Positions 2,465 to 59,175 of a stretch of DNA of 64,000 nucleotides are shown piece after piece. The DNA is from Patescibacteria group bacterium (GTDB taxonomy: Bacteria; Patescibacteriota; Minisyncoccia; Phycocordibacterales; UBA918), in the NCBI GenBank assembly GCA_040386275.1, contig JAZKFU010000008.1:6853-70852 (forward strand), given 5' to 3'. Position numbers and translations under genes: made by a program. The notes beneath the pieces are model-generated. The model ran no database searches and had not been told where the DNA came from. It was given only the letters and a program-made list of their open reading frames with translations. Within the stretch, counting starts at the first letter, position 1. Every line of letters starts with the position of its first letter.

Positions 2465-2560
2465 GTCTACTGCGTTGTGCTGCAGTAAAATTATTTTCAC
2501 CGTACAAGGAGTACGGCTCAAACAATTTTCTTTGCACGCCTTGTATCTCGGGCAATCTTG
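2465..2560. repeat. intergenic hairpin repeat family member (CCGTAC-N5-GTACGG core)
   Basis: ctactgcgttg…cagtaaaat…caCCGTACaaggaGTACGGctc…attttctttg…cttgtatctc; the same architecture recurs at least 9 more times in the window. Confidence 0.7.
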
Positions 2561-2614
2561 TAAAGACTAGAGAAGTTAACGCCAGTTACATTAACTAGTA
2601 ATTAAATTAATAGC

Positions 2615-3064
2615 ATGGAAGAAATAATAAAAGCCTTCGGTATTGATGGTCGTCTGATCATCGTTCAAATCATCAACTTCGGGATTTTGATGGTGGCCTT
2701 GGTGTACTTCTTGTACAATCCGATTTTGAATCTCTTAGCCAGTCGCGAAGAGAAAATCGTGCAGGGTATCAAAGATGCTGAAGCCGCAGCAGCTGCTAAA
2801 GCCTCAGCCGATGCAGAGAAAAAAGTAATTTTAACTGACGCTCACAGTGAAGCGGCAGCGGTGAATGCGCGCGCTAAAGTGGCGGCTGACGCGACGGCAA
2901 GTGATATTCTCGCCAAAGCGCAAACTGACGCAGCAGCGGTGATTGCAGAAGCGGCAGTAAAGGCTGAACAATTAAAACTTCAAGCCGAACGTGATAGCGC
3001 TGCCGAGATTGCCAAAACTGCGATTCTTGCAGCCGAAAAAATTCTCACTCAAAAGAGTGCTTAA
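2615..3064 (+). CDS. atpF: ATP synthase subunit b
   Basis: N-terminal TM helix followed by a long Ala/Glu/Lys-rich helix; operon position. Confidence 0.8.
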   Translation: MEEIIKAFGIDGRLIIVQIINFGILMVALVYFLYNPILNLLASREEKIVQGIKDAEAAAAAKASADAEKKVILTDAHSEAAAVNARAKVAADATASDILAKAQTDAAAVIAEAAVKAEQLKLQAERDSAAEIAKTAILAAEKILTQKSA

Positions 3065-3070
3065 TAATTT

Positions 3071-3454
3071 ATGAAAGATACCTACGTTCACGCAGTGTTA
3101 GAACTTATTCAAGCCGGGCAACCGATTGAGACAGTTTTAACAAACCTTAAAAAGGTGCTGGCAACACGAGGTCATCTAAAATTACACGGTTCTATCTTGA
3201 ATGCGGTAATGACACAGTTAGAAGCAGCTCTCGCAAGTGAAGTGCCAACAGTAGTGCTCGCACGCGAAGGCGCAGTGACGGATGCCGCGATTAAAAATGC
3301 CCTAGCACAGCTCGGAGCTTCAGATGCTGACTATCGAGTGTCATATAATCCAAATATTATTGGCGGGCTTATCGCAACGTACAAGAGTAAACAGCTTGAT
3401 CAAAGTTACCAAACAAAGTTACGAGAATTATACCAATCCATTATTACCGCCTAA
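3071..3454 (+). CDS. atpH: ATP synthase subunit delta (short, 127 aa)
   Basis: Operon position between atpF and atpA; C-terminus IIGGLIATYKSKQLDQSYQTKLRELY resembles OSCP/delta. Confidence 0.6.
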   Translation: MKDTYVHAVLELIQAGQPIETVLTNLKKVLATRGHLKLHGSILNAVMTQLEAALASEVPTVVLAREGAVTDAAIKNALAQLGASDADYRVSYNPNIIGGLIATYKSKQLDQSYQTKLRELYQSIITA

Positions 3455-3471
3455 TTATTATCAAAACCACT

Positions 3472-5076: not shown

Positions 5077-5979
5077 ATGGCACTCAAACAAATTAAAAAC
5101 AAAATAATCTCCACCAAGAAAACCGGTAAAGTTACCAAGGCGATGGAGGCGGTGTCGGCGGTTAAAATGCGCAAGAGTCAGATGCGTGCGTTTGAAAGCC
5201 GTCCGTATGTTCGTACGGCCATGCGAATCCTTTCTCGACTCGCTGATTCACACGAAGGACTGGCTCATCCGCTCGCGCAAAAACGTGAACGGGGACGACG
5301 CTTGCTGATTATTGTTACCAGTGACAAAGGGTTAGCCGGGAGTGTAAACAGTGCGGTTTTAAAACGAGTAGATCACACGGTACTAGCTCATCCGGAAACA
5401 GATGTGGTGTGTATTGGTCGCAAGGCAAGTGAGTATGCCCAAAGACAAAACCTCAAAGTGCTCTATGAGCACACGAATGTCTCGGATGATATTTCTCTAG
5501 CCGAAGTGTCTGAGATTTCTACACTAGCCGTGAACCATTTTACGCAAGGTACCTATACCGGTGTTGACGTGGTGTATCAAAACTTCCTTTCTACCTTTGA
5601 ACAAGAGCCCGTGAAGCGTCAAGTATTACCTCTTGATACTGCAGAAATTATGACCATTATGGAAGGTATTAAGCCACGCGCCGGGGCAAAGATTCCCGTA
5701 GAGTCTCAAGCTACCGCACAAGAAACCTATACCGTCGAACCTTCAGCTGAAGCAGTATTAAATATCCTGATTCCTCAATTGGTTCAAGTGGTGGTCTATC
5801 ACGCGTTGTTGGAAAGTAAGGCGAGTGAACATAGTGCTCGAATGGTAGCAATGAAAAACGCCACTGATAAGAGTAAGGAGGTAACAAGGTTCCTCACGCT
5901 TAAATACAACAAAGCCCGTCAAGCAGCAATCACAGCCGAAGTAGCAGAGATAACCGGCGGTATGGAAGCAATGAAATAA
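5077..5979 (+). CDS. atpG: ATP synthase F1 gamma subunit
   Basis: MALKQIKNKIISTKKTGKVTKAMEAVSAVKMRK N-terminus and conserved C-terminal helix (ITAEVAEITGG). Confidence 0.9.
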   Translation: MALKQIKNKIISTKKTGKVTKAMEAVSAVKMRKSQMRAFESRPYVRTAMRILSRLADSHEGLAHPLAQKRERGRRLLIIVTSDKGLAGSVNSAVLKRVDHTVLAHPETDVVCIGRKASEYAQRQNLKVLYEHTNVSDDISLAEVSEISTLAVNHFTQGTYTGVDVVYQNFLSTFEQEPVKRQVLPLDTAEIMTIMEGIKPRAGAKIPVESQATAQETYTVEPSAEAVLNILIPQLVQVVVYHALLESKASEHSARMVAMKNATDKSKEVTRFLTLKYNKARQAAITAEVAEITGGMEAMK

Positions 5980-5994
5980 ATCCTCGATATGACT

Positions 5995-6095
5995 TCATTT
6001 GCTTTGTCAGACTGCAGTAAAATAAAACTCACCGTACAGAAAGTACGGCTCGCATTATTTTCTTTGTCTTTCGCGCAACTAAAGCCATCTCAAGA
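5995..6095. repeat. intergenic hairpin repeat family member
   Basis: ctgcagtaaaat…tcaCCGTACagaaaGTACGGctcgc…attttctttg… downstream of atpG. Confidence 0.7.
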
Positions 6096-6120
6096 ATTTA
6101 TAAGTTAAATTCTTTGGAAC

Positions 6121-9262: not shown

Positions 9263-9343
9263 TGTATTACTCAAAAGCCCAAGTACAACGTCCTGCTCGT
9301 ACTTATTAAATAATTTAAATTAACATTACACCACGAAATTTTG

Positions 9344-9368
9344 AAGGAGGAGGCAAGACCTCCTCCTT
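9344..9368. terminator. hairpin AAGGAGGAGG-caaga-CCTCCTCCTT downstream of mutM (minus strand)
   Basis: Perfect 10-bp stem; its 19-nt core gaggaggcaagacctcctc is identical to the terminator at 28059-28077. Confidence 0.5.
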
Positions 9369-9370
9369 GG

Positions 9371-10237
9371 TTATTTTTGGCAAGTAGGGCAGTAGTGGGT
9401 GCCGCGGCCAGCGCAACGGATTTTTACTATGAGGGTTTTACACCGGGGGCAGGGGGTGCCTTGTTTGCCAAAAACTTGCAGGTACTCGGTAAAGTTACCG
9501 ACGTTTCCATTGCTATCAATAAAGTGTTTGAAGGTCGTGCCACCTACCTTGATAGATTCATTCATGACGTCTCCGGCAGCTTTGGCGAGCAATTTAGCTT
9601 CTTTATTAGTCAGTGTATTGGCGAGGCGAGTAGGGGCTATTTTGGCTCGCCAGAGGGCTTCGTCAACGTAGATGTTGCCGAGTCCGGCTACAAACGATTG
9701 ATTGAGTAAGGCGGCTTTGATAGGAGTTTTTCGGCGTTTAAGCGCAGTAGTGAACCAAGTTGTATCAAACTCACTATGAATTGGCTCTGGCCCATATTTT
9801 TCTTTTATCTTTTCTAGTTCCTCGTTGTTTACAATTTTAAGATAGCCAAATAAGCGCATGTCATTAAAATACATTGTGCCACTCGTGCCAAAATGTATCG
9901 CCAGGCGCGTGTGTTTGTGGGGAAACCCTGACCCATCACCATCAGACATTGAATGTCCACCTCCGATGACTGCACCTTTAGTATCAACAAAGAAAAACTG
10001 TCCGGTCATTTTGAGGTGTCCCAGCATAAATGTATCCGGTTGCTTAGCAAAGCAAAATATGAGCAACTTACCAACTCGGTCAATGTGATCGATGGTCAGG
10101 CCAACTATTTTTTTGGAAAATTGTGTATCACTGGCGGTAGTTTTAGGATGGTACACCGTAACACCAGAAATGGTTTTACCGCGTAGTTTATGGAGTAGTT
10201 GTAACCGTACAGTTTCGACTTCGGGGAGTTCGGGCAT
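9371..10237 (-). CDS. mutM: formamidopyrimidine-DNA glycosylase (Fpg/Nei family)
   Basis: N-terminal MPELPEVE catalytic motif and C-terminal CxxC…CxxC zinc finger (CPRCKTLIVKIRCAGRGTHYCPTCQK). Confidence 0.85.
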   Translation of the reverse strand: MPELPEVETVRLQLLHKLRGKTISGVTVYHPKTTASDTQFSKKIVGLTIDHIDRVGKLLIFCFAKQPDTFMLGHLKMTGQFFFVDTKGAVIGGGHSMSDGDGSGFPHKHTRLAIHFGTSGTMYFNDMRLFGYLKIVNNEELEKIKEKYGPEPIHSEFDTTWFTTALKRRKTPIKAALLNQSFVAGLGNIYVDEALWRAKIAPTRLANTLTNKEAKLLAKAAGDVMNESIKVGGTTFKHFIDSNGNVGNFTEYLQVFGKQGTPCPRCKTLIVKIRCAGRGTHYCPTCQK

Positions 10238-10594: not shown

Positions 10595-10656
10595 ATCAGG
10601 AGCATCGCAGATTGCTGGGGCAGCCTTGAGATTTTCAGGGCTGCTTTTTTTATATC

Positions 10657-10690
10657 AAAAATCCGGTCTTTCGACCGGATTTTTGTTAGC
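10657..10690. terminator. bidirectional terminator aaaaATCCGGTCtttcGACCGGATtttt
   Basis: Perfect hairpin flanked by A and T runs. Confidence 0.6.
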
Positions 10691-10923
10691 CTTCGCAACT
10701 GACACAGACAGATTCACTTGCCATGTGTATCCGCGGTTTAGTTGGAGCACTACTCGCGACTTCTGGTAAGTCAAAATCTACATTGAATGTGTTGTTTGCC
10801 ATATAAGACTATTTTACCATGTAGGAAAAATAGAAGTCTGACTGTAACTGTGTATAGAGACGTGATAGTGTTAGTTTTTGGTCGGTCAAGATACGCAATG
10901 TTTGGTTCGTCAAGATTAATGAG

Positions 10924-13201: not shown

Positions 13202-14323
13202 ATGTCACTTTTTACTTTTAACTCAAAATTTATGAATCAGGCTCTTTCTAAAAGCACTGCTTTTACCATTGCGCTGTGTCTCTTCGCTTCATTTGCATCA
13301 TTTGCAGTGCCGGCTGAAGCTGCTACCGCAAAACCTACCTGTACGCTAGCGTTTAGTTATGACGGCAAGACAGGTCAAACCAAATATGATGAAGAAATTT
13401 CTATCCTCAAAAATACTCCCATCACACTTGTCTGGAGTAGTAAAAATGCTACCAAGGCTATCGATGGAGATCGAAACACCGTGGCTACATCTGGAACTGC
13501 TACCGTCACACCAGCCGTTAAATCAGAGTATGCCTATACCTTTAGTCAGGGTAGTAAAAAGGTAACCTGTAGTGTGGAAGTGAGTATTATTTCTGGCACC
13601 ATTACTACCAAAACCGTAGCTAAAAATGGTGAAAAAATTAACCTAACCGGGAAAGTAACCGGTGTTAAAAAAGTAGCGGTAGTAGTGTATGCCGAAGGCA
13701 CCACCACCCCTGCCTATACCACCAAAGCCCTGTCGGTAAAAAACAAAAAATATAGTTTCAAAATGCCGAAGGCCTTGCCTGATGGAAATTACCGAATTGT
13801 GCTACAAACAACTGGTACAGCACCCGTAGTGCTCGCTTCTAGTACCTTGGCTGTTGGGAAAGTACAACCGCTTGCGCAATCACACTTGGTGGTAAAAACT
13901 ATTCCGTTACTCGTTGGTGGTACCGCCAAAGTGGGGAGTAGTGTAGCGGTGTCATACATCCAAGTTATTAACGTTGGTACCAAGCCCGCCAACCTGACTG
14001 GATTTACCTTTGCCCAAAATGGTACCGCTCCGGTGACTGCAATTGCCGGTATGACGATTAAAGATGAATCAGGGTTAATTCAAGGGTCAGTGGGGACTAT
14101 GGTAACCGGTACACCATTTGTGGGAACGAGTGCCGCTATTCCGGTAACTGCTACCTTGGCACCAAAAGAATCACGACTCTTTACGGCTCGGGCAGTGGTG
14201 AGTCCAACTGCCGTAGCAAACGTTGGACAAACTATGTCTTTGTCACTGCAAGCCATAACGGGTGATGCAAAAGTACAAAGTTCACTGCCACTTGCCGGTG
14301 TTACGTGGACGATTGTTCAGTAG
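13202..14323 (+). CDS. secreted Thr/Val-rich hypothetical protein (likely beta-sandwich surface protein)
   Basis: Signal peptide (…SFAVPAEAA), low-complexity T/V/G-rich body, perfect terminator downstream. Confidence 0.55.
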   Translation: MSLFTFNSKFMNQALSKSTAFTIALCLFASFASFAVPAEAATAKPTCTLAFSYDGKTGQTKYDEEISILKNTPITLVWSSKNATKAIDGDRNTVATSGTATVTPAVKSEYAYTFSQGSKKVTCSVEVSIISGTITTKTVAKNGEKINLTGKVTGVKKVAVVVYAEGTTTPAYTTKALSVKNKKYSFKMPKALPDGNYRIVLQTTGTAPVVLASSTLAVGKVQPLAQSHLVVKTIPLLVGGTAKVGSSVAVSYIQVINVGTKPANLTGFTFAQNGTAPVTAIAGMTIKDESGLIQGSVGTMVTGTPFVGTSAAIPVTATLAPKESRLFTARAVVSPTAVANVGQTMSLSLQAITGDAKVQSSLPLAGVTWTIVQ

Positions 14324-14337
14324 TCACTTATATAAAA

Positions 14338-14374
14338 TAAAAAGGGGGCCCGACAATGTCGGGCCCTTTTTTAT
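14338..14374. terminator. bidirectional terminator aaaaaGGGGGCCCGACAatgTCGGGCCCtttttt
   Basis: Perfect GC-rich hairpin between convergent genes. Confidence 0.7.
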
Positions 14375-14844
14375 GGTCGAGTAAATTTGTGAACGGTTTC
14401 TTCCATCACATCTTCAACGTGGACTTCAGCCTCGCTTTCGAAATCAAATACTCCAGCCATGATGCACGCGATCTTCCAGTCTTCCATGACCATTCGGTTG
14501 CTACGGGATTTCTTCCGTATTTTTGAAACAGACTGGTAGACAATTTTTTCTAGTTCCGCCACTTTTGTGGCGATTAAATCATCCAAGATGCGAATGGCGT
14601 GCTCACCCTCATCGGTATCCCATTCGTATTCTTGTGCTAGGCCGTACACCGTATCGCGACTAAGCATCATGAGAATAGATTTCAATGTTTGCTTAGTAAA
14701 TTGGCGATGATACTGATGGTGAAGGTGGTCAGGCTTCGAAATGGCTGAAAAAATCTCAGCACACAAATTAAGTATGATCTTCCCGTGAGAGTCCCGACTA
14801 TAGATTTCAGGAATCCCTATCACTTCCCAGACGCTTTTGTCCAT
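14371..14844 (-). CDS. hypothetical protein (157 aa)
   Basis: ORF only. Confidence 0.45.
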   Translation of the reverse strand: MDKSVWEVIGIPEIYSRDSHGKIILNLCAEIFSAISKPDHLHHQYHRQFTKQTLKSILMMLSRDTVYGLAQEYEWDTDEGEHAIRILDDLIATKVAELEKIVYQSVSKIRKKSRSNRMVMEDWKIACIMAGVFDFESEAEVHVEDVMEETVHKFTRP

Positions 14845-14942
14845 CGACGTGCCCTCGTGTTTTTATGACTGTCCACTACCTAGAGTGCCAAAATTATAGG
14901 TTTTTGGCAAGGTCAAAGGTTTAATTCCATAAACTTGCTATT

Positions 14943-16214
14943 TTGCGTGACGCTGGCATAATTTTGATAATATTATACTCATTAATAGAGATTATAGTGA
15001 TAATTTTAAAACACGGAACAATTGAAGCGGTTGAACTGGATAACGAGGTTTTTAAAACTTTGTTGGGTTTTTATCCTGAGGAAAATTTGGTTGAGTATCG
15101 TCTTTTTAAGGGTCCTATGGAAAAAGGTTCGATGACAATAACCGAGCTAAAGGACGCCAGTGAAAAAATTCACCTTCCATGGCAAATGTTCTTGTTAGAT
15201 ATGGTTAATCTAGAAAGAGAATTAAAAAATATTGAAGATAATCGACTTGATAAGTTCCCTAAAGGTACTTTAGAGATTCATAAGAGAAAAGGCGCTGGTT
15301 GTATTACCTCAAAACGTATTATAGACAGACAAATCAGAATTCAGGCGTTTGTAACTTCTCAGCTTCCAGCCAATTTTATTTGTGATTTTGTTGGTTCTCT
15401 GAAAAATAAAACAGTTGACCATGCAGTCAAGCATATCATTGAATATTTCCAAATCAACCTTAATCATTTTCGTACTTATGATGAAGCAGAGAAGGCGAAG
15501 AATTATTTGATCTCTCGTATACAGTCAAAACAAAACATAAATGTTGCCCAAGGGGTGCGAACAAATGGTATTTTACCTGAAATTAAAAATACTTTAGAGA
15601 TTTATAGAAATACGAGTGGTTTTGTGGTGCAAGACAAGAAACTTCCATTCATCTTTTTGCCAAGTGAAATAAATCCTGACGAAAATCATTATCGACAAAT
15701 TTACACCCTTCTTTATTTATTGGTAGTAGTTGGTATGAATGAGTTTTCTCACGCAATTGAAAATTACTCAATTAAGAAAATTAGAGAGGACAAAAAATTT
15801 AAAAAAATTAACATGATTGTTTCTGAGCTGTTTTTGCCGTCTTTAGTTACTAATACCCTAGATCAAAAAACGATAGATAAAGAAGCGATCAATAAATTGA
15901 AGATGGACTATAAGTTATCGTACTCTGCTGTGCTTTATGTCCTAAGAATGAGAAAAGTTATTGATGCTGATTTGGCTAAGGAGCTCGATTTGCCCAAGAG
16001 GCAACCTAGTAAGGTTAAAGAAGCTGTTGAATCAGCAAAGACATATTTCTCTCATCCTCACATTACTACTTCAGTTAAAAAATTCTGCGGGGACGTAGCA
16101 ACAGTAAGTATAAATACTGCTATTAGAGATGGACTATACCCTAATCGAAGTCAAATGATTGTGTTTGGTCGACCTAGAAAAGATAAATGGATTGAGCTCC
16201 GTTCAAGAATATGA
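14943..16214 (+). CDS. hypothetical protein of the AT-rich island; possible degenerate ImmA/IrrE (M78)-like domain. True start may be the internal Met at about 15115
   Basis: Segment VVVGMNEFSHAIENY…(about 25 aa)…SELFLPSLV resembles the M78 HExxH…E..F..L.P core but reads NEFSH, so it is probably inactive. The 3' end overlaps the next gene (ATGA). Confidence 0.45.
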   Translation: MRDAGIILIILYSLIEIIVIILKHGTIEAVELDNEVFKTLLGFYPEENLVEYRLFKGPMEKGSMTITELKDASEKIHLPWQMFLLDMVNLERELKNIEDNRLDKFPKGTLEIHKRKGAGCITSKRIIDRQIRIQAFVTSQLPANFICDFVGSLKNKTVDHAVKHIIEYFQINLNHFRTYDEAEKAKNYLISRIQSKQNINVAQGVRTNGILPEIKNTLEIYRNTSGFVVQDKKLPFIFLPSEINPDENHYRQIYTLLYLLVVVGMNEFSHAIENYSIKKIREDKKFKKINMIVSELFLPSLVTNTLDQKTIDKEAINKLKMDYKLSYSAVLYVLRMRKVIDADLAKELDLPKRQPSKVKEAVESAKTYFSHPHITTSVKKFCGDVATVSINTAIRDGLYPNRSQMIVFGRPRKDKWIELRSRI

Positions 16215-16675
16215 AAATAATCGATATGAACATTATTAGTAAGTATTGTGCTGGGGAAATTCAGGTTGATTTTACTGATCCGGTGTACGTTACTTCAGAA
16301 CTTAAGGATGAAATTGAAATACACAAAGCGTCTTTTCCAGGTCATCGTACAAAACTTCAAGGGATAAAGTTTGTAGATATTGAAATGTATCAATATCCTG
16401 GCGGAGAACATTTTGATGAAGCAAAATATTTATTCCATTACAAAAAACTTATTAATAAATATACCAAGATCACTTCATTCTACGGCCTAAAAGGTGTGGG
16501 CGATATGTCTATCTTGGCAGCTGTTGCAACACTTTTGGGTCGAAATAATCCATCTTTATTCGATGCACAAGAATCAATTGAAGTTATGACTCATGATATG
16601 GATTTAAAAGTAGCATTAACTGAAGAATTTGGAGATTTAATAGTTGTCATTGATCCGCTCACATTACAACAATAA
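16211..16675 (+). CDS. hypothetical protein, PIN-like nuclease fold suspected
   Basis: N-terminal IIDMNII motif, internal acidic residues, GDMSILAAVATLLG…THDMD pattern similar to PIN D…ilAaA…TrD; translationally coupled to the upstream gene. Confidence 0.4.
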   Translation: MKIIDMNIISKYCAGEIQVDFTDPVYVTSELKDEIEIHKASFPGHRTKLQGIKFVDIEMYQYPGGEHFDEAKYLFHYKKLINKYTKITSFYGLKGVGDMSILAAVATLLGRNNPSLFDAQESIEVMTHDMDLKVALTEEFGDLIVVIDPLTLQQ

Positions 16676-16781: not shown

Positions 16782-18044
16782 ATGCCCGAAAAACGTTATG
16801 TGTTTAGAGTTAAGGAAAACAAACTCTATATAGTCTATATTGCTGAAGATGTAACTTGGGTGTTTGGTAATCTGGAACTTTCGGGCTCTGCTAGTCTGCG
16901 AGGAAAAGTTTTTACCGTTACAGGGGGTGAGATACTGAGTGGGGTTGAGCACTTATCACAAGAAGCAGAATTTCCAATAGGAAAAAAGGAAGGTGAGTAT
17001 TATAAAATTAGTCCTCAGATATTAAGTACTCAAAAACCTATTTTTATACATGAAAGTGTAATTGACGATTTTGAGCCCGAAGATTTTTTCGTAAGGCAGC
17101 CTTATTTTGAAAGAACTGCTGGTGACGGTTCTTCAATAGGAGTTCAAAATGAAAAATTTATTCCGATTTTCCCAGTACTAGAAAAAATGTTTGACGAAGT
17201 GTTGCGTATAGGAGGAGAGGAAGAAAATAGCATACCGTTAGAGGTGTTTAAAAAAGCCATTAGTGTTTTACCTGATAGAAAAGAAGTTAAAAGATATCTT
17301 GATGCAAGAATTGCACATATTATTGGTGAGTACATAACACCAAAAAGAGATTTTGACACTCATCACGAAAAGTTAATTGCACACCGTGAAGCACAACTAA
17401 CAAGGAGAAATTTAACTCCAACTCTGTTCCAAGAAACTAAAGAATTAAAAAAGGAAATTTTTCAGATTGCGTATGATGAACTTAAAAGGATGCTTAATGG
17501 CAATCTAGTAACTATACCTGAAAGTGAATGGCAAGATAAAATTTTGGACATCATATTACTTCTGTACCCCAAATACGTTCACAAAGAAAAGTCTGTGGAA
17601 GTCATTAAAGATCAAGGGTATGGTTTGGTCGATATTATGTTATTTGATGCTGCAGGATTTGTTGATTTGATTGAAGTTAAGAAACCTGAGGTAAATGGGG
17701 TGGGCGTGCTTAGAAAAGCTTTGTACCGTAAAAACTACGTACCGAGCAGAGAACTATCTGGTGCAATAATGCAGGTTGAGAAATATTCATTTTGGTTGTC
17801 TAGGTGGGGTAAAAAAGGAGAGGAAAAGATTCAGCAAAAATATGCGAACGAACTACCAGATGGTATGAAAGTTAAAATAGCGAATCCAACGGGAATAATT
17901 ATCTTCGGGCGAGATGAAGATTTCAACGAAGAAGAAAGACAGGATTTTGAGGTGATAAAAAGAAAATACAAGCATGTGGTCGATATATTGACCTATGATG
18001 ACTTACTAAGGAGGATTGCAAACATAATCAACATACTAGAATAA
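16782..18044 (+). CDS. Shedu-like (DUF4263) PD-(D/E)xK nuclease-domain protein
   Basis: C-terminal region GLVDIMLFDAAGFVDLIEVKKPE … ELSGAIMQVEKYSFWL … GIIIFGRDEDF…VVDILTYDDLLRRI matches my recollection of DUF4263 hallmarks (D…iElK, QxxxY, viiGr, iTYDdLl). Confidence 0.55.
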   Translation: MPEKRYVFRVKENKLYIVYIAEDVTWVFGNLELSGSASLRGKVFTVTGGEILSGVEHLSQEAEFPIGKKEGEYYKISPQILSTQKPIFIHESVIDDFEPEDFFVRQPYFERTAGDGSSIGVQNEKFIPIFPVLEKMFDEVLRIGGEEENSIPLEVFKKAISVLPDRKEVKRYLDARIAHIIGEYITPKRDFDTHHEKLIAHREAQLTRRNLTPTLFQETKELKKEIFQIAYDELKRMLNGNLVTIPESEWQDKILDIILLLYPKYVHKEKSVEVIKDQGYGLVDIMLFDAAGFVDLIEVKKPEVNGVGVLRKALYRKNYVPSRELSGAIMQVEKYSFWLSRWGKKGEEKIQQKYANELPDGMKVKIANPTGIIIFGRDEDFNEEERQDFEVIKRKYKHVVDILTYDDLLRRIANIINILE

Positions 18045-25172: not shown

Positions 25173-25183
25173 GATTTTATATG

Positions 25184-25506: not shown

Positions 25507-25665
25507 AGGTAACTTACTTCAACTTTATCCTAATGCTTAGGGTTCATGACTCTGGTTCGCAGTCGACCAAGGTCGACCTTCTTACTTTCAACTGAGTGAA
25601 CAAAGTGGACAAAATTATTTTGTACATTTTTGAACGAGGGAAGAAAGGAAGTTTACTTACAGAAG

Positions 25666-39830: not shown

Positions 39831-39836
39831 GTATTT

Positions 39837-42314: not shown

Positions 42315-42323
42315 TTATTTGGT

Positions 42324-42614
42324 ATGCACATTACACCCACTATGATGCAAGAGATATCGCAGGTACTGCAAATTGATACGCTATCAGAAGCAGAGCAAAA
42401 TGCTCTTAATGAACGAGTAGGAAATGAAGTGTTGGAAAATACCTTGCTTTTGTATTTGAACGGGTTAAATGAGTGGGAACAATCTTCGTTTCAACAATGG
42501 ATAACTGCTCATGCTGGTGATGCTGATATGATGGCCGATTTATTATTGCTGTATCCTGATTTTGGAAAAATACTCTCCCAACAAATAATATTACTTGCCC
42601 AAAAATCTCAGTAA
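42324..42614 (+). CDS. small hypothetical protein (96 aa)
   Basis: Tightly linked ORF in the same cluster. Confidence 0.4.
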   Translation: MHITPTMMQEISQVLQIDTLSEAEQNALNERVGNEVLENTLLLYLNGLNEWEQSSFQQWITAHAGDADMMADLLLLYPDFGKILSQQIILLAQKSQ

Positions 42615-42662
42615 TATATTTTTACGTTTCAGTAATACACAGGTGATGGTGAGTGGTCAGTA

Positions 42663-45077: not shown

Positions 45078-45081
45078 TAAA

Positions 45082-45284
45082 GAAGCTATGAAAACGGCAC
45101 ATTGCGTTGTCACTGCTGCGGTACATTTCCTTCCGCCGTGAGAAAGTCTGGGAGACTTTCGCAAGAGGTTGCCAGCTCTTTTGTAAAAGAGCGATAACCT
45201 GAACAGCTTCTGTAAGAAGCAAGAAGTACGTCTACAGAAAATGTCCTTGCGTTCCTAGCACTGCACTCGTTTTCATAGCTTCTT
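45082..45284. mobile_element. MITE-like element with perfect 16-bp terminal inverted repeats
   Basis: agaagctatgaaaacg (45082-45097) and cgttttcatagcttct (45269-45284) are exact reverse complements; interior carries structured-motif copy 3 and a hairpin-repeat fragment. Confidence 0.45.
45138..45216 (-). ncRNA. structured RNA-like motif, copy 3
   Basis: Reverse complement gives CUUACAGAAGCUGUUCA-[GGUUAUCGCUCUUUUACAAAAGAGCUGGCAACC]-UCUUGCGAA-AGUCUCCCAGACU-UUCUCAC. Confidence 0.4.
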
Positions 45285-46976: not shown

Positions 46977-46989
46977 CGGCTTTCGTAAG

Positions 46990-47095
46990 CGGCGCACTTC
47001 TGCGTTGAATTTCATAAAATAAACTTCAACGTACAAAAAGTACGCCTCAGCTTATTTTCTTCATTCGCCTTGAATTGCATCCACTTACAAAACCC
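46990..47095. repeat. intergenic hairpin repeat family member (variant AACGTAC…GTACGCC)
   Basis: ttctgcgttgaatttcataaaat…tcaACGTACaaaaaGTACGCctc…attttcttca…ccttgaattgcatc. Confidence 0.6.
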
Positions 47096-48467: not shown

Positions 48468-49544
48468 ATGAGTTTTATTGGTCGCAGCTTTGGAAAACTA
48501 CTTAATTCGTTGTCGACGGACATTGGAATTGATTTGGGAACAGCCAATACATTAATGTATGTCAAAGGAAAAGGCATCATTTTAAATGAACCAACCATTG
48601 TTGCGATAAATAAAAAAACCGGTCAGTTGGTAGCAGTGGGAAATGAAGCGCGTGCGATGCAGGGTCGTACGCCGACACATATTGAAGTAGTGCGCCCTTT
48701 AGTTGATGGGGTGATTTCTGACTTTGAAGTGACCGAAGAAATGTTAGGGTATTTGATTGCCAAGGTACGGAGTGAAATGCGAACATTAATTGCCCCGCGC
48801 GTACTCGTGGGGGTGCCGTCAGGTATTACCAACGTAGAGATGCGCGCCGCGCGAGATGCCGCTCGTAACGCTGGCGCCCGTGAAGTATTTTTAATTGAAG
48901 AACCGATGGCGGCCGCTATTGGTGCAAAATTACCGGTGGGTAAAGCGGTAGGGAGCATGATTATTGATATTGGTGGCGGGACTACTGACATTGCCGTCAT
49001 TTCACTTAATGGAATAGTGGTTGCAAAAAATCTACGGGTAGCCGGTGATCATTTGAGTACTGCCATTTCCACCTACATTCGTGATCAGTTTAAGGTGTAT
49101 GTTGGAGAAAAAACTGCTGAAGATGTTAAAATTGCGTTAGCGGCCGTTGAACATAAAGATGGTGCCAAAGAACATGTTATTCGCGGTCGCGATGTGATGA
49201 CGGGTCTTCCCCGTGAAGTAGTTATTACCGACAGTGATGTGCGAGATGCAATTGCGCCACAAGTTGATAGTATAGTAGAAGCAGTACGTACGGTACTGGA
49301 GAAAACCCCACCGGAAGTATTAGCTGATATCATGCAACGAGGCATCCATCTTTCAGGCGGTGGAGCCCTAATTCCTGGACTCCAACAACTATTACAAGAA
49401 GTGCTTGAAGTGCCAGTGATTGTAGTGCCTGATCCACTTCGGGCTGTGGTACGCGGGACGGGAATCGTAATCGAGAACTTAGAATTCTATGCAGAAATCC
49501 TCATTGATAAAGAAGGCGAACTCTCGCCGCACCTCACCGACTAG
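48468..49544 (+). CDS. mreB: rod shape-determining protein MreB (paralog 2, heads the mreBCD-mrdA cluster)
   Basis: IGIDLGTANTLMYV, DIGGGTTDIAVIS. Confidence 0.9.
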   Translation: MSFIGRSFGKLLNSLSTDIGIDLGTANTLMYVKGKGIILNEPTIVAINKKTGQLVAVGNEARAMQGRTPTHIEVVRPLVDGVISDFEVTEEMLGYLIAKVRSEMRTLIAPRVLVGVPSGITNVEMRAARDAARNAGAREVFLIEEPMAAAIGAKLPVGKAVGSMIIDIGGGTTDIAVISLNGIVVAKNLRVAGDHLSTAISTYIRDQFKVYVGEKTAEDVKIALAAVEHKDGAKEHVIRGRDVMTGLPREVVITDSDVRDAIAPQVDSIVEAVRTVLEKTPPEVLADIMQRGIHLSGGGALIPGLQQLLQEVLEVPVIVVPDPLRAVVRGTGIVIENLEFYAEILIDKEGELSPHLTD

Positions 49545-50471: not shown

Positions 50472-50741
50472 ATGATTTCTAGCCCACTTTTTATTCGGTT
50501 ACTCACTTTTTTCGGGGTTACTCTCGGGTGGTATTTTGGTATTTTATTGCTGGCGTTTCCGCTCACGCTCTGGTACCTGCTTAATTTTAAAGCCTATGAA
50601 TTGATTGCCTTGGGCATGCTCATTGATATGTATTTTATGCCCATACGGTTAGTCCCAGTGTATACAATCTGTTTTGCTGGTGCGTTTATCATTATTGAAA
50701 TTATAAAACCGCGATTTAAAAGTGGTGTTACTACAATATGA
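50472..50741 (+). CDS. mreD: MreD-like small polytopic membrane protein
   Basis: 89-aa three-helix membrane protein between mreC and mrdA; 3' end overlaps the mrdA start. Confidence 0.45.
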   Translation: MISSPLFIRLLTFFGVTLGWYFGILLLAFPLTLWYLLNFKAYELIALGMLIDMYFMPIRLVPVYTICFAGAFIIIEIIKPRFKSGVTTI

Positions 50742-52453
50742 AATTTCGCTCCAAAAAAAAGCGAATAGTGGAACTCGACGAGATTTTACTTGATGTATCT
50801 AATCTCCCTTCTTTTAACACCGGCCGGATGGAAGGTCGTCGCGAGTTGCCCATAAAACCGGTCAACGTCTATTTAATTGGTGTGTGTTTTATAATTGTGG
50901 CCATCGCTTTTTTTGGAAAAATATTTCACCTGCAAGTCACCGAAGGGGCACGTTTCCGAACTATCAGTGACAATAATAGTGTGAATACCAGCGTCATCAT
51001 TGCCGAACGGGGAGTTGTGTTTGATCGAAAAGGTGAGCCGTTAATTTGGAATGAACATGATTTTACCGATCAGTATGATTTTCCGGTACGTGCGTATACG
51101 GACCGGCTCGGGATGGGGCAATTGATAGGGTACGTGAGTTACCCGCAACGAGATAAAAAAGGTGTGTACTACCGAACCGAATACCTCGGCAGAACGGGGG
51201 TAGAGAGTGCGTTTGAAGATGACCTACATGGCACTAATGGTGAAAAAATTATCGAGCAAGATGCGCTCGGGGAAATTATCGGTGAACATGCCTTATCTGC
51301 CCCGGTTGAGGGTAAAGCCATCACACTTTCAGTAGATGCTGGTTTATCGGAAGCTATGTACCAAATCATCGCCACCAGTAGTGCGCAAGCTGGGTTTCGG
51401 AGTGGAGCGGGGGCAATTATGGATATTCATACCGGAGAGATTTTAGCCATGACGAGCTATCCTTCGTACGATCCTGAAGTTATGGCTGATGGAGACAACA
51501 CGACCTTGATTAGTGAATACAACAAAGATGATCGGTTGCCGTTTTTAAATAAAGTAGTGAGTGGTGTCTATACACCTGGCTCGATTGTAAAGCCATTTGT
51601 GGCCTACGCGGCATTGTCAGAAAAAATTATCGATCCCAATAAAACTATCGTCAGTAACGGGTACTTAGTTGTGCCTAATCCGTATAATCCTAGTAACCCG
51701 TCACGATTTAATGACTGGCGAGCGCATGGGGCGATGACAATGCGTGAAGCAATTGCATTCTCCTCTAACGTCTATTTTTATATCATTGGTGGTGGCTTTG
51801 GTGATCAGGCGGGACTCGGGATTACAAAAATGAGTCAGTACTACAAATTATTTGGGATGGGTAGTACAACGGGCATTACCATCGCGTCCGAACAGGAAGG
51901 AGTTGTACCAACCCCGGCCTGGAAAAAAGAAACATTTGATGATGATTGGCGACTAGGAGACACGTACTTTACCGCTATTGGTCAGTATGGTTTCCAGGCT
52001 ACACCCCTACAAATGTTACGTGCCTACGGTGCGCTAGCTTCTGGCGGAACCCTCGTTACGCCACACGTAATAAAAGGTGAGGTGAGTAGTACTACCGACA
52101 TAGGACTAAATCGCGAGTATTTAAAGGTGGTGCACGAAGGAATGCGCAAGACAGTGATTATCGCGGGCGGTACCGCGCGGGGATTAGAGCGAAAAGATGT
52201 AGCCATTGCGGCCAAGTCAGGTACAGCAGAAATTGGAGCCGGTAATGCGTTTGTGAATTCTTGGGCGGCTGGTTTTTGGCCGTACGAAGACCCGAAGTTT
52301 GCGTTTATATTGCTGATGGATAAGGCACCTCGTAGTAATGCGCTGGGGGCTACACGAATCATGGGTGGGGTATTTGATTGGATGGCACTCAATCGTCCAG
52401 AGTACATTAATCCAGATAAAGCCATTGAAATACCTGATAATACATCAGAGTAG
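50738..52453 (+). CDS. mrdA: penicillin-binding protein 2 (elongasome transpeptidase)
   Basis: SxxK (GSIVKP), SxN (FSSNVYF), KSGT (AAKSGTAE) motifs; N-terminal anchor. Confidence 0.85.
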   Translation: MKFRSKKKRIVELDEILLDVSNLPSFNTGRMEGRRELPIKPVNVYLIGVCFIIVAIAFFGKIFHLQVTEGARFRTISDNNSVNTSVIIAERGVVFDRKGEPLIWNEHDFTDQYDFPVRAYTDRLGMGQLIGYVSYPQRDKKGVYYRTEYLGRTGVESAFEDDLHGTNGEKIIEQDALGEIIGEHALSAPVEGKAITLSVDAGLSEAMYQIIATSSAQAGFRSGAGAIMDIHTGEILAMTSYPSYDPEVMADGDNTTLISEYNKDDRLPFLNKVVSGVYTPGSIVKPFVAYAALSEKIIDPNKTIVSNGYLVVPNPYNPSNPSRFNDWRAHGAMTMREAIAFSSNVYFYIIGGGFGDQAGLGITKMSQYYKLFGMGSTTGITIASEQEGVVPTPAWKKETFDDDWRLGDTYFTAIGQYGFQATPLQMLRAYGALASGGTLVTPHVIKGEVSSTTDIGLNREYLKVVHEGMRKTVIIAGGTARGLERKDVAIAAKSGTAEIGAGNAFVNSWAAGFWPYEDPKFAFILLMDKAPRSNALGATRIMGGVFDWMALNRPEYINPDKAIEIPDNTSE

Positions 52454-52982: not shown

Positions 52983-53004
52983 AGGGGGTGAAAGTCCAAA
53001 AATA

Positions 53005-53090
53005 ATTTTATACTGCGTTGCCTGCATTATTTTAGTCCTCACCGTACAAAAAGTACGGCTCGAACAAAAATAACTAGTCGCCTTGTCTAA
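53005..53090. repeat. intergenic hairpin repeat family member
   Basis: tactgcgttgcctgcattatttt…tcaCCGTACaaaaaGTACGGctcgaac…. Confidence 0.65.
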
Positions 53091-53131
53091 AAAGATTTTT
53101 GAACTTCCATCGATGAATTACATTTTATTTC

Positions 53132-53162
53132 AAAAAACCAATCGCTTTGCGATTGGTTTTTT
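53132..53162. terminator. bidirectional terminator aaaaaACCAATCGCtttgGCGATTGGTttttt
   Basis: Perfect hairpin with flanking A/T runs. Confidence 0.65.
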
Positions 53163-53227
53163 GTTGTGGATGTTTATAAATGTGGTAGTGTTTATGCGGA
53201 ATCGACATTCTCATGCAGGAGCTTTAG

Positions 53228-53503: not shown

Positions 53504-53712
53504 TATTTTAAAATCGACCTTTCCGTACCACGGGGAGGTCTTATTTTAAATACCACTTAATTTTAAATAGACTTACGATAATAGATGCAGTTCTAGACGA
53601 CGTGTTAAAAATGCTGCGAGGCGTATCGAGTATACGATGAGTGGCATTTTTGACTCGTCACCAACGAAATGCGCTATTTGCGTAAGTTGCTGTTACCCGC
53701 TAATATACACAA

Positions 53713-56892: not shown

Positions 56893-57207
56893 ATGCTCGC
56901 GAATGTAATTTCCAAACCCACCCATGCATTCTACTTTAATGCTGGCGTTGCCACCCTTTTTACATTGGTCTTTTTGTACATGTATTTCCTCTCAATGTCG
57001 GTAGTACACGTAGTACTGCGCAAGGAAATTATGAATGATGTTGCCAAAGTTGAGTCTCAAATTGCTCAACTAGAATCTTCTTATATTACTGCGCAACACA
57101 AAGTGAGTAATAAAATTGCCGCCCTAGAAAACTTCACCGCTAACGAAACCAAAATCTTTGTCAGTCGTGAGGAATCAACGTTGGTACTCTCTGAATCGGC
57201 CCGGTAG
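56893..57207 (+). CDS. ftsL: FtsL-like cell division protein
   Basis: Single TM segment then coiled coil; canonical position between rsmH and ftsI. Confidence 0.5.
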   Translation: MLANVISKPTHAFYFNAGVATLFTLVFLYMYFLSMSVVHVVLRKEIMNDVAKVESQIAQLESSYITAQHKVSNKIAALENFTANETKIFVSREESTLVLSESAR

Positions 57208-58932
57208 TTGTTCTCTATGCGTAAAAGTACCACAGCGCGAATACGAATTATCTCCGCGGTGATTTTTTTTATAGGCTTTTTATTGATTGTTCGTTTGTAT
57301 CATATACAAATAAATCAAGCTGAAGCCTATCGCGAAAAAGCCCAACGCCAATACGTACACACCGCTAAAGACGTCTATAACCGAGGCAGTATATATTTCA
57401 CCACCAAAGATGGAGAAAAAGTTTCAGCTGCCTCAGTCACCTCAGGGTATCTCGTGGCGGTGAATCCAACCATCATTACTGATCCCGAAGCAGTCTACGA
57501 AAAGATAAAGATGCACGTAGCAATATCAAAAGATGACTTTATTGCTAAAGCCACGTTACCGAACCGTACCTATGTAGAAATTGATCCAAAGGTAAATGAA
57601 GCGACTTACGAATTATTATCTAAAGAATCAGTCGAAGGAGTGATGTTGTACCGAAATCAGTGGCGATACTATCCGGGCGATACGATGTCTGCTCGGTCAA
57701 TTGGGTTTGTGGGATTTGGTAGTGATGACGGACAGTTACGCGGGAAGTATGGTCTTGAACGTTACTATGACGAAACCCTCTACCGGGACAATACCAAACT
57801 TTCAGTGAACTTTTTTGCAGAGATCTTTTCTAATCTCGGTAGTTTAGTGTTTGAAAACTCTGAACAAAAAAGTGGGAGTGTAGTAACGACAATTGAACCA
57901 ACCGTAGCACGTATGCTTGACCGGGTGTTACAAGAAACCCAAGACGAGTATAAAAGTAAACTCACGGGTGGAATCATCATGGATCCTAAAACGGGAGCAA
58001 TTTATGCGTTAAACGTGGCGCCAACCTTTGATTTAAACACTCGTGGCACAAGTTCAATCGATCAATTCCAAAATCCGTTAGTGGAAAACGTGTACGAGAT
58101 GGGTTCGATTATTAAAGCCCTTACCATGGCAGCTGGACTTGATAGTAAAGTAGTAACACCTCAATCGACGTACTACGACGCCGGATTCCTTGATCTTAAT
58201 GGATACACTATTAAAAACTTTGACGGTAAAGGTCGTGGTACCGTTCCGATGCAAACGGTCTTGGATCAATCACTCAATACCGGAGTATCACACATTGTAA
58301 AATTAATGGGGCGAGAAAAATTCCGCAGCTATTTTGAAGGTCTGAAATTAGGAAGTGAAACAGGAATTGATTTACCGAGTGAAGCCCAGGGACTGATGAA
58401 GAACCTGCAGTCTCCGCGTGATGTAGAGTACGCAACCGCCTCATTCGGGCAGGGAATTGCGATGACTCCGATAGCAACCGCGAGAGCCTTAGCGACGTTA
58501 GGTAATGGTGGTCATCTAGTAACTCCTCATATTGTTAAAGCTATTGAATACGATGATGGTACTAAAAAAGAAGTGGTCTACCCAAATGGTGCTCAAGTCT
58601 TTACGCCCGAAACAAGCGAAACCGTATCACGCATGCTCACGAGCGTCGTCGACACTGCTTTGCGTGGGGGAGATGTAGCACTTCCACACCATACTATTGC
58701 CGCCAAAACCGGTACAGCGCAGATGTCTAATCCAAATGGGGGTGGGTATTATGAAGACAAATACCTCCACTCATTCTTCGGGTATTTCCCCGCCTATGAT
58801 CCGAAGTTTATTGTGTTCTTGTATACGGTAGATCCACGAGGCGTGCAGTATGCGTCTGAGACGTTGACGACGCCGTTTATGGATATAACCAAGTTTTTAA
58901 TAAATTACTACAGCATCCCCCCAGACCGATAA
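57208..58932 (+). CDS. ftsI: penicillin-binding protein (FtsI/PBP3-like divisome transpeptidase)
   Basis: SxxK (GSIIKA), SxN (SLNTG), KTGT (AAKTGTAQ). Confidence 0.85.
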   Translation: MFSMRKSTTARIRIISAVIFFIGFLLIVRLYHIQINQAEAYREKAQRQYVHTAKDVYNRGSIYFTTKDGEKVSAASVTSGYLVAVNPTIITDPEAVYEKIKMHVAISKDDFIAKATLPNRTYVEIDPKVNEATYELLSKESVEGVMLYRNQWRYYPGDTMSARSIGFVGFGSDDGQLRGKYGLERYYDETLYRDNTKLSVNFFAEIFSNLGSLVFENSEQKSGSVVTTIEPTVARMLDRVLQETQDEYKSKLTGGIIMDPKTGAIYALNVAPTFDLNTRGTSSIDQFQNPLVENVYEMGSIIKALTMAAGLDSKVVTPQSTYYDAGFLDLNGYTIKNFDGKGRGTVPMQTVLDQSLNTGVSHIVKLMGREKFRSYFEGLKLGSETGIDLPSEAQGLMKNLQSPRDVEYATASFGQGIAMTPIATARALATLGNGGHLVTPHIVKAIEYDDGTKKEVVYPNGAQVFTPETSETVSRMLTSVVDTALRGGDVALPHHTIAAKTGTAQMSNPNGGGYYEDKYLHSFFGYFPAYDPKFIVFLYTVDPRGVQYASETLTTPFMDITKFLINYYSIPPDR

Positions 58933-58939
58933 TTTATTC

Positions 58940-59045
58940 CAGAATCCCTGCATCTACTGCGTTGCTGCTCAGTAAAATGAAGTTCAACGTACTAATGTAC
59001 GCCTCACTTTATTTTCTTCGCGCGTCTTGTATCTACAGCAATTCT
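58940..59045. repeat. intergenic hairpin repeat family member
   Basis: cctgcatctactgcgttgctgctcagtaaaat…tcaACGTACtaatGTACGCctc…attttcttcg…cttgtatctacagcaa. Confidence 0.65.
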
Positions 59046-59074
59046 GAAACAAATTAAAATTTGCGCCAAACTAC

Positions 59075-59175
59075 GCCCATCTGCTGCGTTGTTGCTGTTC
59101 GCTTTTTCACTCACCGTACATTTAGGTACGACTCGCAAAAAAGCGAACAGCACGCCTTGCATCTGGACGCATTTT
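59075..59175. repeat. intergenic hairpin repeat family member
   Basis: cccatctgctgcgttgttgctg…tcaCCGTACatttagGTACGActcgc…cgccttgcatctggacgc. Confidence 0.6.

Follow-up and report, generated by a model that had tools for sequence, protein, structure and literature searches.

The window analysed here, a 64,000-nucleotide stretch of a Patescibacteria group genome (assembly GCA_040386275.1, contig JAZKFU010000008.1, positions 6,853 to 70,852 of the forward strand), carries a dispersed hairpin repeat, termed family-1, in the spacers between its genes. Family-1 is a real, previously undescribed family of 125–160-base hairpin elements, the base of the hairpin lying at the stop codons of ordinary genes. 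It is more than a species-specific junk repeat or a plain terminator, since it turns up in at least two unrelated phyla and folds much better on the strand opposite the gene. Literature searches found no earlier description of it. Rfam 15 gave no match to any window copy at E ≤ 5 or at gathering thresholds, and no match at E ≤ 1 in six high-GC loci from metagenomes.

A scan of the window for the core pattern CCGTAC-N5-GTACGG, with one mismatch allowed, gave 4 matches against 0 expected, and gap-free repeat finding joined copies on both strands into one family. Two covariance models were run over the window with filters off. R1, built from a MAFFT alignment of eight copies, returned 10 matches of 36–94 bits and nothing further above 16 bits; R2 returned the same list plus an interrupted copy at 45099–45269, and scores over the two models span 31–94 bits. 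The next best candidate, 10638–10706 (at most 19 bits), is spurious and consists of two ordinary terminators. The census of the window thus comes to 10 copies matched by covariance model, a further one that is interrupted, and some debris, or about 11 copies per 64 kb, all intergenic. These copies share only about 55–65% identity and look old. A preliminary description had reported a ~90-bp hairpin repeat here; every copy that it listed is present where it was placed, and its names for the neighbouring genes agree with Pfam (ATP synthase c and gamma, M50 peptidase, GreA, penicillin-binding protein (PBP) transpeptidase and MreB), but it overlooked the minus-strand copy at 53582–53672. Its unit of ~90 bp corresponds to the conserved 90-nt core, whereas the whole hairpin with its pairing flanks measures 125–160 nt. 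Family-1 with outer arms occupies 1.6 of 9.2 kb, or about 17%, of the intergenic DNA of the window, rather than most of it as had been proposed.

The copies follow genes of ordinary function. Although they had been placed at operon ends, and do lie at gene 3’ ends, two of them are inside the atp operon. The first (2464–2554, +; 94 bits with R1 and 80 bits with R2) stands after atpE and before atpF, as the Pfam matches of its neighbours indicate, and its full hairpin with outer arms (about 2432–2580) encloses the atpE stop codon at 2444–2446. The second (5996–6086, +; R1 90.8 bits; full hairpin about 5965–6112) begins 16 nt past the atpG stop. On the minus strand, a partial copy without its 5’ part (31268–31348; R1 36.3 bits, R2 31 bits) lies 3’ of the gene at 31547–33445, and an interrupted copy (31343–31547, corresponding to inverted repeat I14; model match 31437–31527, R1 50.3 bits; outer arms 31343–31369 and 31521–31547) begins 19 nt past the stop of that gene. 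Within its 3’ part, in the opposite orientation, sits a member of a second repeat, family-2 (31375–31460; 96.6 bits with the family-2 model R3). The region 36640–37010 past mreB, credited earlier with 3–4 copies, contains one intact copy 21 nt past the stop (36654–36741, +; R1 73.9 bits), followed by degenerate debris (36749–36995, +; direct repeat D7, weak match of 10 bits) with 3’ halves at about 36868–36905 and 36947–36992. Between a holB-like gene and frr, what had been taken for a fragment at 45091–45130 is the 5’ half of a complete copy (45080–45284, +; model match 45099–45269, R2 27.4 bits with filters off; outer arms 45080–45097 and 45268–45284), whose apical loop holds the unrelated family-2 in the same orientation (45138–45222; R3 91.2 bits).

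The remaining copies lie in the last third of the window. One begins 17 nt past the stop of rseP, the M50 peptidase gene (46994–47083, +; R1 81.8 bits; full hairpin about 46978–47094), and orthologous copies occupy this site in loci L003, L005, L008, L030, L031, L033 and L039. Another begins 24 nt past the greA stop (53007–53096, +; R1 69.9 bits; full hairpin about 52990–53113), with a canonical bidirectional terminator 3’ of it at 53126–53165. The previously missed copy (53582–53672, −; R1 40.1 bits, R2 44.3 bits; full hairpin about 53563–53690) is oriented against both flanking genes, 41 nt before lysS and after a terminator at 53516–53540, and has an orthologue at L005 12457(−). Finally, a tandem pair follows ftsI. 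Its first member (58951–59040, +; R1 91.9 bits; full hairpin about 58920–59065) begins 18 nt past the stop, and its second (59078–59170, +; R1 78 bits; full hairpin about 59057–59186), in which the long stem GCTGTTCGCTTTTT/AAAAAGCGAACAGC is fully compensated, lies between the convergent ftsI and 59312–59572(−).

Each unit comprises a variable outer arm, an A4-5 tract, a short GC clamp, the 90-nt core, a second clamp, a T4-5 tract and the complementary outer arm. The core is a single irregular hairpin whose four helices are split by conserved internal loops (CTNCTTTGTTG / CGCCTYGNATCT, and TCA / CTC near the CGTAC-N5-GTACG apex). P1 is 3 bp, TNC/GNA, with a covarying middle pair; a conserved TTTGT / CCTY loop separates it from P2, also 3 bp and including a nearly invariant T.G. 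P3 is a variable stem of 9–12 bp with double changes at every pair, joined through the conserved TCA / CTC internal loop to P4, the apical CGTAC/GTACG stem with its loop of 4–6 nt. In the alignment of eight copies the RNAalifold consensus has 22 pairs, 17 of them with compensatory changes, and double changes are found at 20/22 pairs of the model, so that the similarity holds up under proper alignment. Over the Patescibacteria set and an independent metagenome set, 89.9% of paired cells are complementary, compared with 63–65% in shuffled and 23–55% in slid controls, and compensatory cells number 270 and 493 where shuffles give 76 and 147. The flanks also pair with each other (cognate −16.2 vs non-cognate −7.2 kcal/mol, p = 5e-26), the outer arms being complementary within each copy and different between copies, with only the A-tract and clamp in common.

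Position-specific profiles place the A-tract at −9 to −5 and the T-tract at 0 to +4 in all three data sets. A first result of no U-tract enrichment was set aside because that test looked beyond the outer arms, while the tracts lie inside them. In Rokubacteria-type loci the full unit reads TAG-CAGGCTGCTG-AAAAA-GGCC-core-GGACC-TTTTT-GAGCAGCCTGC. Judged from its sequence, the full unit is laid out like a bidirectional intrinsic terminator whose conserved hairpin is very long. An origin of the outer arms by insertion into the loops of existing terminators is rejected, because the A- and T-tracts lie inside the arms and the arms are AT-rich or coding. Separately, in Rokubacteria-type loci (for example L125 7487–7530, L127, L130, L085 and L075) a solitary reverse complement of the 5’ flank (GGGTTTTTCAGCAGCCTGCTAG) is present downstream of many high-GC copies and includes the convergent gene’s stop codon, so that the stop-proximal arm motif TAGCAGGCTGCTGAAAAA is found alone at gene ends as well.

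Placement of the element is tied to stop codons. In Patescibacteria the 5’ end of the model lies 3–26 nt past a same-strand stop codon in about 49/55 copies, while the gap to the next gene varies from 16 to 417 nt. Among 76 assessable metagenome copies, for which open reading frames (ORFs) were called heuristically, 57 have their 5’ end towards a same-strand stop codon, again 3–26 nt away, and 19 have it towards a start codon. Where the two neighbouring genes are co-directional, the same orientation prevails by 24 to 4 in metagenomes and by about 45 to 6, in a manual tally, in Patescibacteria, and 18 metagenome copies fill gaps between convergent genes with both stops 5–35 nt away. Two classes of gap can be told apart. 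Where the gap is 15–26 nt, the outer arm begins 0–4 nt past the stop; where it is 3–7 nt, the 5’ outer arm consists of the last codons and the stop codon itself, and the downstream arm matches each genome’s own codons (CTCAAAGTCGAATAAG / CCTATTCGACTTTGAG and GTCGAATAAG/CCTATTCGAC in L064, GTGGAGTAA/TTACTCCAC in L038, GTTGCGTAAAG/CTTTACACAAC in L027). Since the arms track the last codons and the stop, the hairpin has its base at the stop codon, and the two co-evolve.

Many copies occupy orthologous sites. Family-1 occupies the greA site in 25/64 genomes; in the 39/64 without the element, the printed sequences mostly have a canonical A-tract/GC-stem/T-tract terminator there. Other recurrent sites lie after rseP, ftsI and PBP2, and a reverse-oriented copy recurs between proS and the second mreB. 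Such reverse-oriented copies are conserved in position, past a terminator and before the promoter of the next gene. It could be argued from the gene-end position, from the A- and T-tracts and from the canonical terminators that fill the same site in genomes lacking the element that these are ordinary intrinsic terminators, alike by convergence or by common descent within one genome. That explanation is scarcely credible, as the 90-nt core keeps the same loops in genomes from 28% to 74% GC, copies stand inside operons or have real terminators after them, and the hairpin greatly exceeds terminator stems in length and is at its weakest in the sense direction.

The two strands of the element differ consistently in folding. 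For Patescibacteria the core folds at −22.6 kcal/mol on the sense strand and −29.4 kcal/mol on the opposite strand, the latter being better in 51/57 copies; with 25-nt flanks the values are −38.3 and −52.6 kcal/mol (56/57). Low-GC metagenome copies with the same flanks give −41.5 against −55.8 kcal/mol, the opposite strand being better in 37/37 cores and 32/32 flanked copies, and high-GC copies give −78.0 against −90.2 kcal/mol (51/51 and 45/45). Overall the antisense strand folds better in 56/57 Patescibacteria and 88/88 metagenome copies, or 144/145. At 58926–59065 in the window, the sense fold of −30.9 kcal/mol (z −4.3) compares with −51.4 kcal/mol on the opposite strand (z −7.8, 45% of the ensemble). 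Sense A.C mismatches, which become G.U on the opposite strand, number 53 in the model helices against 22 non-conserved G.U pairs, the remaining sense mismatches are mostly pyrimidine-pyrimidine, and the TCA/CTC loop becomes GAG/UGA, a tandem G.A plus G.U. Part of the asymmetry is an inherited trait of the core family rather than independently evolved, and the site-specific outer arms roughly double it.

Composition or mutation bias is excluded as the cause. Ordinary intergenic and coding DNA of the same loci favour the sense fold, by −3.9 and −3.5 kcal/mol, and GC skew in the window is positive throughout on the gene strand, whereas the sense strand of the element is C-rich and G-poor (skew −0.157, compared with +0.079 for other intergenic DNA); the background therefore predicts the reverse of what is observed. 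With DNA energy parameters the asymmetry stays (55/57). Replication and transcription as determinants of orientation are confounded, as the gene cluster is on the G-rich strand in all fetched loci; only the site at 31.3 kb argues for an orientation linked to the gene.

By the criteria commonly used to assign structured RNAs to a strand, the G.U pairs, the tandem G.A, the purine-rich loops and z values of about −7 against −4 make the antisense strand look like the RNA strand, as though the elements were genes for cis-antisense small RNAs, transcribed from their own promoters across the 3’ end of the adjacent gene. A sigma-70 scan and a position-specific −10 test on that strand found no enrichment of promoter-like signals (−10-like in 3/57 vs 5/57 in controls), and many greA sites have a bidirectional terminator just 16–40 nt upstream on the antisense strand. 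On these two grounds a dedicated antisense RNA is unlikely; with many copies inside operons and housekeeping targets that share no common theme, we consider this explanation very improbable.

Family-1 extends far beyond the window. Relatives of the window PBP2 gene (50738–52453) were identified on 68 genome contigs, all Patescibacteria metagenome-assembled genomes (MAGs) labelled Kaiserbacteria, Paceibacteria, Parcubacteria and similar, and R1 and R2 identify 45–59 copies in about 30 of them. A pattern scan of Joint Genome Institute (JGI) metagenomes adds at least 93 R2 copies in 81 fetched metagenome or viral loci, for at least 152 fetched copies outside the window, which decisively dismisses a repeat restricted to this stretch. 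About half of the metagenome matches listed are on contigs of 64–74% GC and have the same loop motifs, so that the 90-nt core with the same loop sequences spans genomes of 28% to 74% GC. On one high-GC contig the encoded SucC is 84–87% identical to proteins named Methylomirabilota or Candidatus Rokubacteria; this is the single high-GC contig with an established taxon, and the element copies on the other high-GC contigs are near-identical. The low-GC contigs L089 and L149, whose element copies are likewise near-identical, encode two-component systems, PHO4, an indolepyruvate oxidoreductase-type enzyme and RecN, a gene content atypical of bacteria of the Candidate Phyla Radiation (CPR). From these affiliations family-1 is assigned to at least two unrelated phyla, Patescibacteria and Rokubacteria-type bacteria, and to a third lineage represented by L089/L149. 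One further copy (L070 21–110, 70.6 bits) is found at the edge of a fetched stretch of IMGVR_UViG_2888060440_000003, a 24-kb contig of 36% GC classed as viral in IMG/VR, which could represent a prophage or else a CPR fragment that was misclassified.

Comparisons of related loci provide evidence of both persistence and turnover. First, orthologous copies persist between genomes whose PBP2 proteins are only 64–87% identical; over all genomes same-site identity is 0.545 and same-genome identity 0.561, divergence being saturated beyond close relatives. Second, the window and L001 are 92–96% identical in DNA, and the mreB site holds a single copy in L001, with its apical stem compensated (GTGC/GCAC), and several in the window. 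Third, the window and L002 are about 95% identical, and the holB-frr copy that is intact in L002 carries family-2 in its apical loop in the window; conversely, the rseP copy is intact in the window, and L002 keeps only its 3’ end, the rest being replaced by family-2. Tandem groups are seen in the window (58951/59078), in L080 (three copies) and in L124 (three copies, two of them adjacent), and the ftsI site with its tandem pair in the window has one copy in L031, L053 and L068. Near-identical copies stand at unrelated loci (L149 2926 vs 10356; L089 1235 vs 5023), and many Rokubacteria-type loci share one master sequence; these sequence relations show recent amplification in the Rokubacteria-type contigs and in the L089/L149 lineage. 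The proposal of a dispersed intergenic repeat of the repetitive extragenic palindromic (REP) or MITE (miniature inverted-repeat transposable element) kind is thus supported, with amplification visible as near-identical copies at different loci elsewhere. The aligned flanks show no target-site (flanking direct) duplication. Also between the window and L002, a 3.7-kb insertion follows lysS at L002 12801–16534 (window 55286) and has no counterpart in the window; within it, at 13545 and 14729, short pieces of the 3’ end of lysS recur.

Family-2 is an unrelated structured repeat of about 86 nt, made of three hairpins joined by conserved linkers (GTGAGAA-hp1-TTCGCAAGA-hp2-TGAACAG-CTTCTGTAAGAAG), with hairpin 2 in two fully compensated variants. 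It has no Rfam match and no strand asymmetry. Besides the two copies within family-1, the window holds one at 25650–25737(−), and others are at L002 4047–4134(−), L003 7497, L004 2191 and 2444, L005 7516(−), L031 12320, L047 6090(−), L053 15084 and L055 12320, the first hairpin in L055 enclosing the greA stop codon. Within family-1, family-2 is inserted recurrently at two places, the apical loop (same orientation) and just 5’ of CTTG-N-ATCT (opposite orientation); it is also found alone and in tandem.

Family-1 is best explained, though with somewhat less than even confidence, as a palindromic repeat of REP/MITE-like type whose hairpin has an asymmetric, bidirectional terminator design and is tolerated or used only with the weak-folding strand in the mRNA. 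Under this explanation family-1 propagates as a repeat, or did so in the past, and would be retained only where its weak-folding strand is the transcribed strand. In the mRNA of the adjacent gene it is a mismatch-ridden, C-rich and moderately stable stem-loop followed by a short U-tract; on the opposite strand these mismatches turn into G.U and G.A pairs, with a hairpin 8–14 kcal/mol more stable. In the sense direction the element would act as a leaky attenuator and a stabiliser of the 3’ end or of an mRNA segment, passed by operon transcription and by the terminating ribosome, which would open the base of the hairpin; a real terminator downstream is compatible with this. In the other direction, incoming antisense or read-through transcription would meet a very stable hairpin with a U-tract and be strongly impeded.

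Several observations weigh against this explanation. The T-tract is short, with at least 4 T in 6 positions in only about 60–65% of copies. At greA sites a canonical terminator usually still follows 20–70 nt downstream of the element, and two window copies are inside the atp operon; the element is therefore unlikely to terminate efficiently in the sense direction, and the terminator role first proposed for it does not by itself describe it. That antisense transcription should have to be blocked at dozens of sites is speculative, and at greA sites a bidirectional terminator on the far side already gives the element shelter. The loops conserved across phyla are unneeded for termination or for blocking exonucleases, and suggest a specific protein partner. 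Lastly, the spacers that hold conserved reverse-oriented copies are probably untranscribed, which fits a role at the DNA level as well or better.

Such a role defines the main rival, in which family-1 is a folded single-stranded DNA (ssDNA) element, comparable to REP/RAYT (REP-associated tyrosine transposase) systems or attC sites, whose template-strand hairpin is recognised through its conserved loops by a structure-specific enzyme or protein. Candidates would be an HUH/Y1 transposase, a tyrosine recombinase, a topoisomerase or a nucleoid protein, and the gene-linked orientation would arise merely because the strong hairpin is not tolerated in transcripts. Folded template-strand DNA best accounts for the asymmetry, which runs opposite to the background and stays with DNA parameters, and for the conserved copies between a terminator and the next promoter. 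It also agrees with the lack of promoter signal and of promoter room for an antisense RNA, with recent amplification from a master sequence as in REP/REPIN populations, and with the recurrent insertion of family-2 at two fixed places, as by hairpin-targeting elements. However, the cognate RAYT or IS200/IS605 transposase that the preliminary description had suggested looking for was not found: Pfam identified no Y1_Tnp/RAYT, IS200/IS605 or other transposase and no integrase among about 60 window ORFs and 10 ORFs beside near-identical copies in the fetched loci. In addition, the strong strand serves as template for transcription and, as GC skew indicates, for the most part as leading-strand template too, which makes it the strand least often single-stranded; stop-codon anchoring and the co-evolution of outer arms with last codons have no obvious rationale at the DNA level; and neither the attC core sites nor the REP GTAG is present. 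On balance we regard it as a serious but unlikely alternative.

Another possibility is that the sense mRNA carries a cis motif, in which pyrimidine-rich loops (UCA/CUC, CUUUGUUG, CGCCUYG) bind a conserved RNA-binding factor such as Rho (at YC-rich sites), a Nus factor or an RNase, while the terminating ribosome melts the base of the hairpin and so couples translation termination to transcription or decay. In this orientation the element is transcribed for certain, lying between stop codon and terminator or inside operons, its hairpin base is at the stop codon, its loop sequences are conserved across phyla, and its C-rich, G-poor sense strand could reflect selection for pyrimidine-rich single-stranded patches instead of a fold on the opposite strand. 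The wobble statistics and the energy difference given above favour the other strand, though, and the conserved reverse-oriented copies and those between divergent genes would be non-functional. The 5’ motif looks boxA-like (CUCUUUA/CUUUG), a putative likeness that would suit a Nus factor, and part of it is base-paired. This explanation seems to us quite improbable. A bolder reading treats family-1 as neither a decaying selfish repeat nor a terminator variant. It would be a stop-anchored, strand-asymmetric ‘punctuation’ common to distant phyla, its purine-rich antisense loops read by a conserved protein, either as a polar insulator or as the site of an enzyme acting on folded DNA; we think this improbable, if less so than the mRNA motif.

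The window contains other features apart from family-1. A tRNA gene at 25178–25506(−), missed by ARAGORN without its intron option, has its anticodon loop interrupted by a 251-nt group I intron (25224–25474; Rfam RF00028, 79.9 bits), and the spliced product reads as either tRNA-Thr(UGU) or tRNA-Asn(GUU), two splice junctions being equally legal and each giving one of them. Directly downstream of it, at 24926–25134, are two repeats of about 124 nt that contain, on the + strand, T-arm/acceptor-like sequence (TTCGAATCCTGCC...CCCGGGG) with an inserted hairpin and one weak family-2 match (23 bits); they look like tRNA 3’-half remnants. Directly upstream of the family-2 copy at 25737, a D-arm-like stretch at 25740–25775(−), GGTAGCGTAAGCGGTAGAG, resembles the 5’ part of the neighbouring tRNA (GGTAGCTCAGCGGTAGAGC), which suggests a tRNA 5’ fragment fused to the repeat. 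Canonical bidirectional terminators at 9325–9378 and 28036–28089 share the stem GGAGG-CAAGA-CCTCC and the flanking ATTACACCAC, with 76% identity over 54 nt, and may form a small terminator-associated repeat family.

Among protein-coding genes, 16782–18044 encodes a protein with the C-terminal nuclease domain of Shedu SduA (anti-phage defence) and adjoins several ORFs without a Pfam match (13202–16675). Directly 3’ of the mreB repeat cluster, 37062–44441 encodes a 922-aa VirD4/TraG-like coupling ATPase followed by proteins of 825, 96 and 592 aa without Pfam matches, and may be a type IV secretion or DNA-transfer-like module. An HTH_3 domain is fused to EPSP synthase at 34032–35540(−). Two peptide deformylase genes (22325–22957(−) and 29495–30097(−)) and two MreB paralogues (35619–36632 and 48468–49544) are also present, all within 64 kb of a small genome.

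Patescibacteria (CPR) and Rokubacteria have hardly been cultured, if at all, and to our knowledge almost nothing is known of their gene-expression signals. Family-1 is a strong candidate for a cross-phylum structured-element family, having a 90-nt core, identical loop motifs, compensatory evolution at orthologous gene ends and no Rfam family. From its fixed relation to stop codons and its consistent asymmetry one would expect termination to be polar, unfolding to depend on the ribosome, or a partner to bind the ssDNA. For annotation, family-1 serves as a marker of gene 3’ ends that a covariance model can locate, and it can explain assembly breaks and indel hotspots in metagenome-derived CPR genomes. 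With ancient positional conservation in one phylum and recent amplification in another, family-1 is relevant to the question of how selfish repeats turn into host elements.

Among known systems, REPs are 20–40 nt long with a conserved GTAG, occur as inverted pairs and form families that are species- or genus-specific; they stabilise upstream mRNA and attenuate transcription, and within about 15 nt of a stop codon they interfere with the terminating ribosome. Family-1 resembles REP/BIME (bacterial interspersed mosaic element) and REPIN + RAYT systems of Enterobacteria and Pseudomonas in being a high-copy extragenic palindrome at gene 3’ ends and in operons, transcribed with the upstream gene, and in forming master-sequence populations, here in the Rokubacteria-type contigs. 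It differs in that its unit is one 125–160-nt hairpin with non-complementary conserved loops, its core is common to several phyla and no RAYT was found nearby. A conserved GTAG is also lacking: the sole GTAG-like triplet, on the reverse strand of CATCTAC, lies within P1, where it covaries (TAC/TGC/TTC with GTA/GCA/GAA).

ERIC/IRU, Correia (NEMIS), RUP and other MITEs are likewise imperfect palindromes of about 100–150 bp in transcribed intergenic DNA, tandem or nested and varying in copy number among relatives, and those of the ERIC, Correia and RUP type can fold in mRNA and affect stability or termination. MITEs are defined by terminal inverted repeats of fixed sequence and by target-site duplications. 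Family-1 does show signs of transposition, in near-identical copies at unrelated loci and in copy differences between relatives, but it is fixed only in its inner flank (A-tract and clamp), its outer arms are site-specific, no duplication was seen and no related autonomous insertion sequence was found. We know of no ERIC, Correia or MITE family described with a fixed stop-codon position and strong strand asymmetry.

Integron attC sites are imperfect palindromes of 57–141 bp that directly follow, and often overlap, the stop codon of an ORF, have a variable apical part and are targets of specialised insertions. Family-1 shares these traits, along with their orientation to the ORF, the conservation of structure above sequence and the folding of the strand opposite to the mRNA. 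Unlike attC, it has no RYYYAAC/GTTRRRY core sites, its ends (CATCTNCTTTGTTG and CGCCTYGNATCT) are not complementary 7-mers, no integrase was found by Pfam, and it is flanked not by cassettes but by housekeeping genes in conserved synteny (atp operon, greA, ftsI, rseP). With bidirectional intrinsic terminators it has in common the A-tract/hairpin/T-tract layout, the position at gene ends and in convergent gaps, and the use of the same orthologous site where the element is absent; it differs by a hairpin 5–10 times longer, conserved internal loops, a short U-tract, positions inside operons and upstream of genuine terminators, and weakness in the sense direction. Because it lacks the defining features of REP, MITE and attC and is probably not an efficient sense terminator, family-1 is, on present sequence comparisons, a new variant of palindromic intergenic repeats outside every named family. 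By analogy, it would work most like the transcribed palindromes of the REP/BIME, ERIC or Correia kind, and the logic of its strand and position would be most like that of attC.

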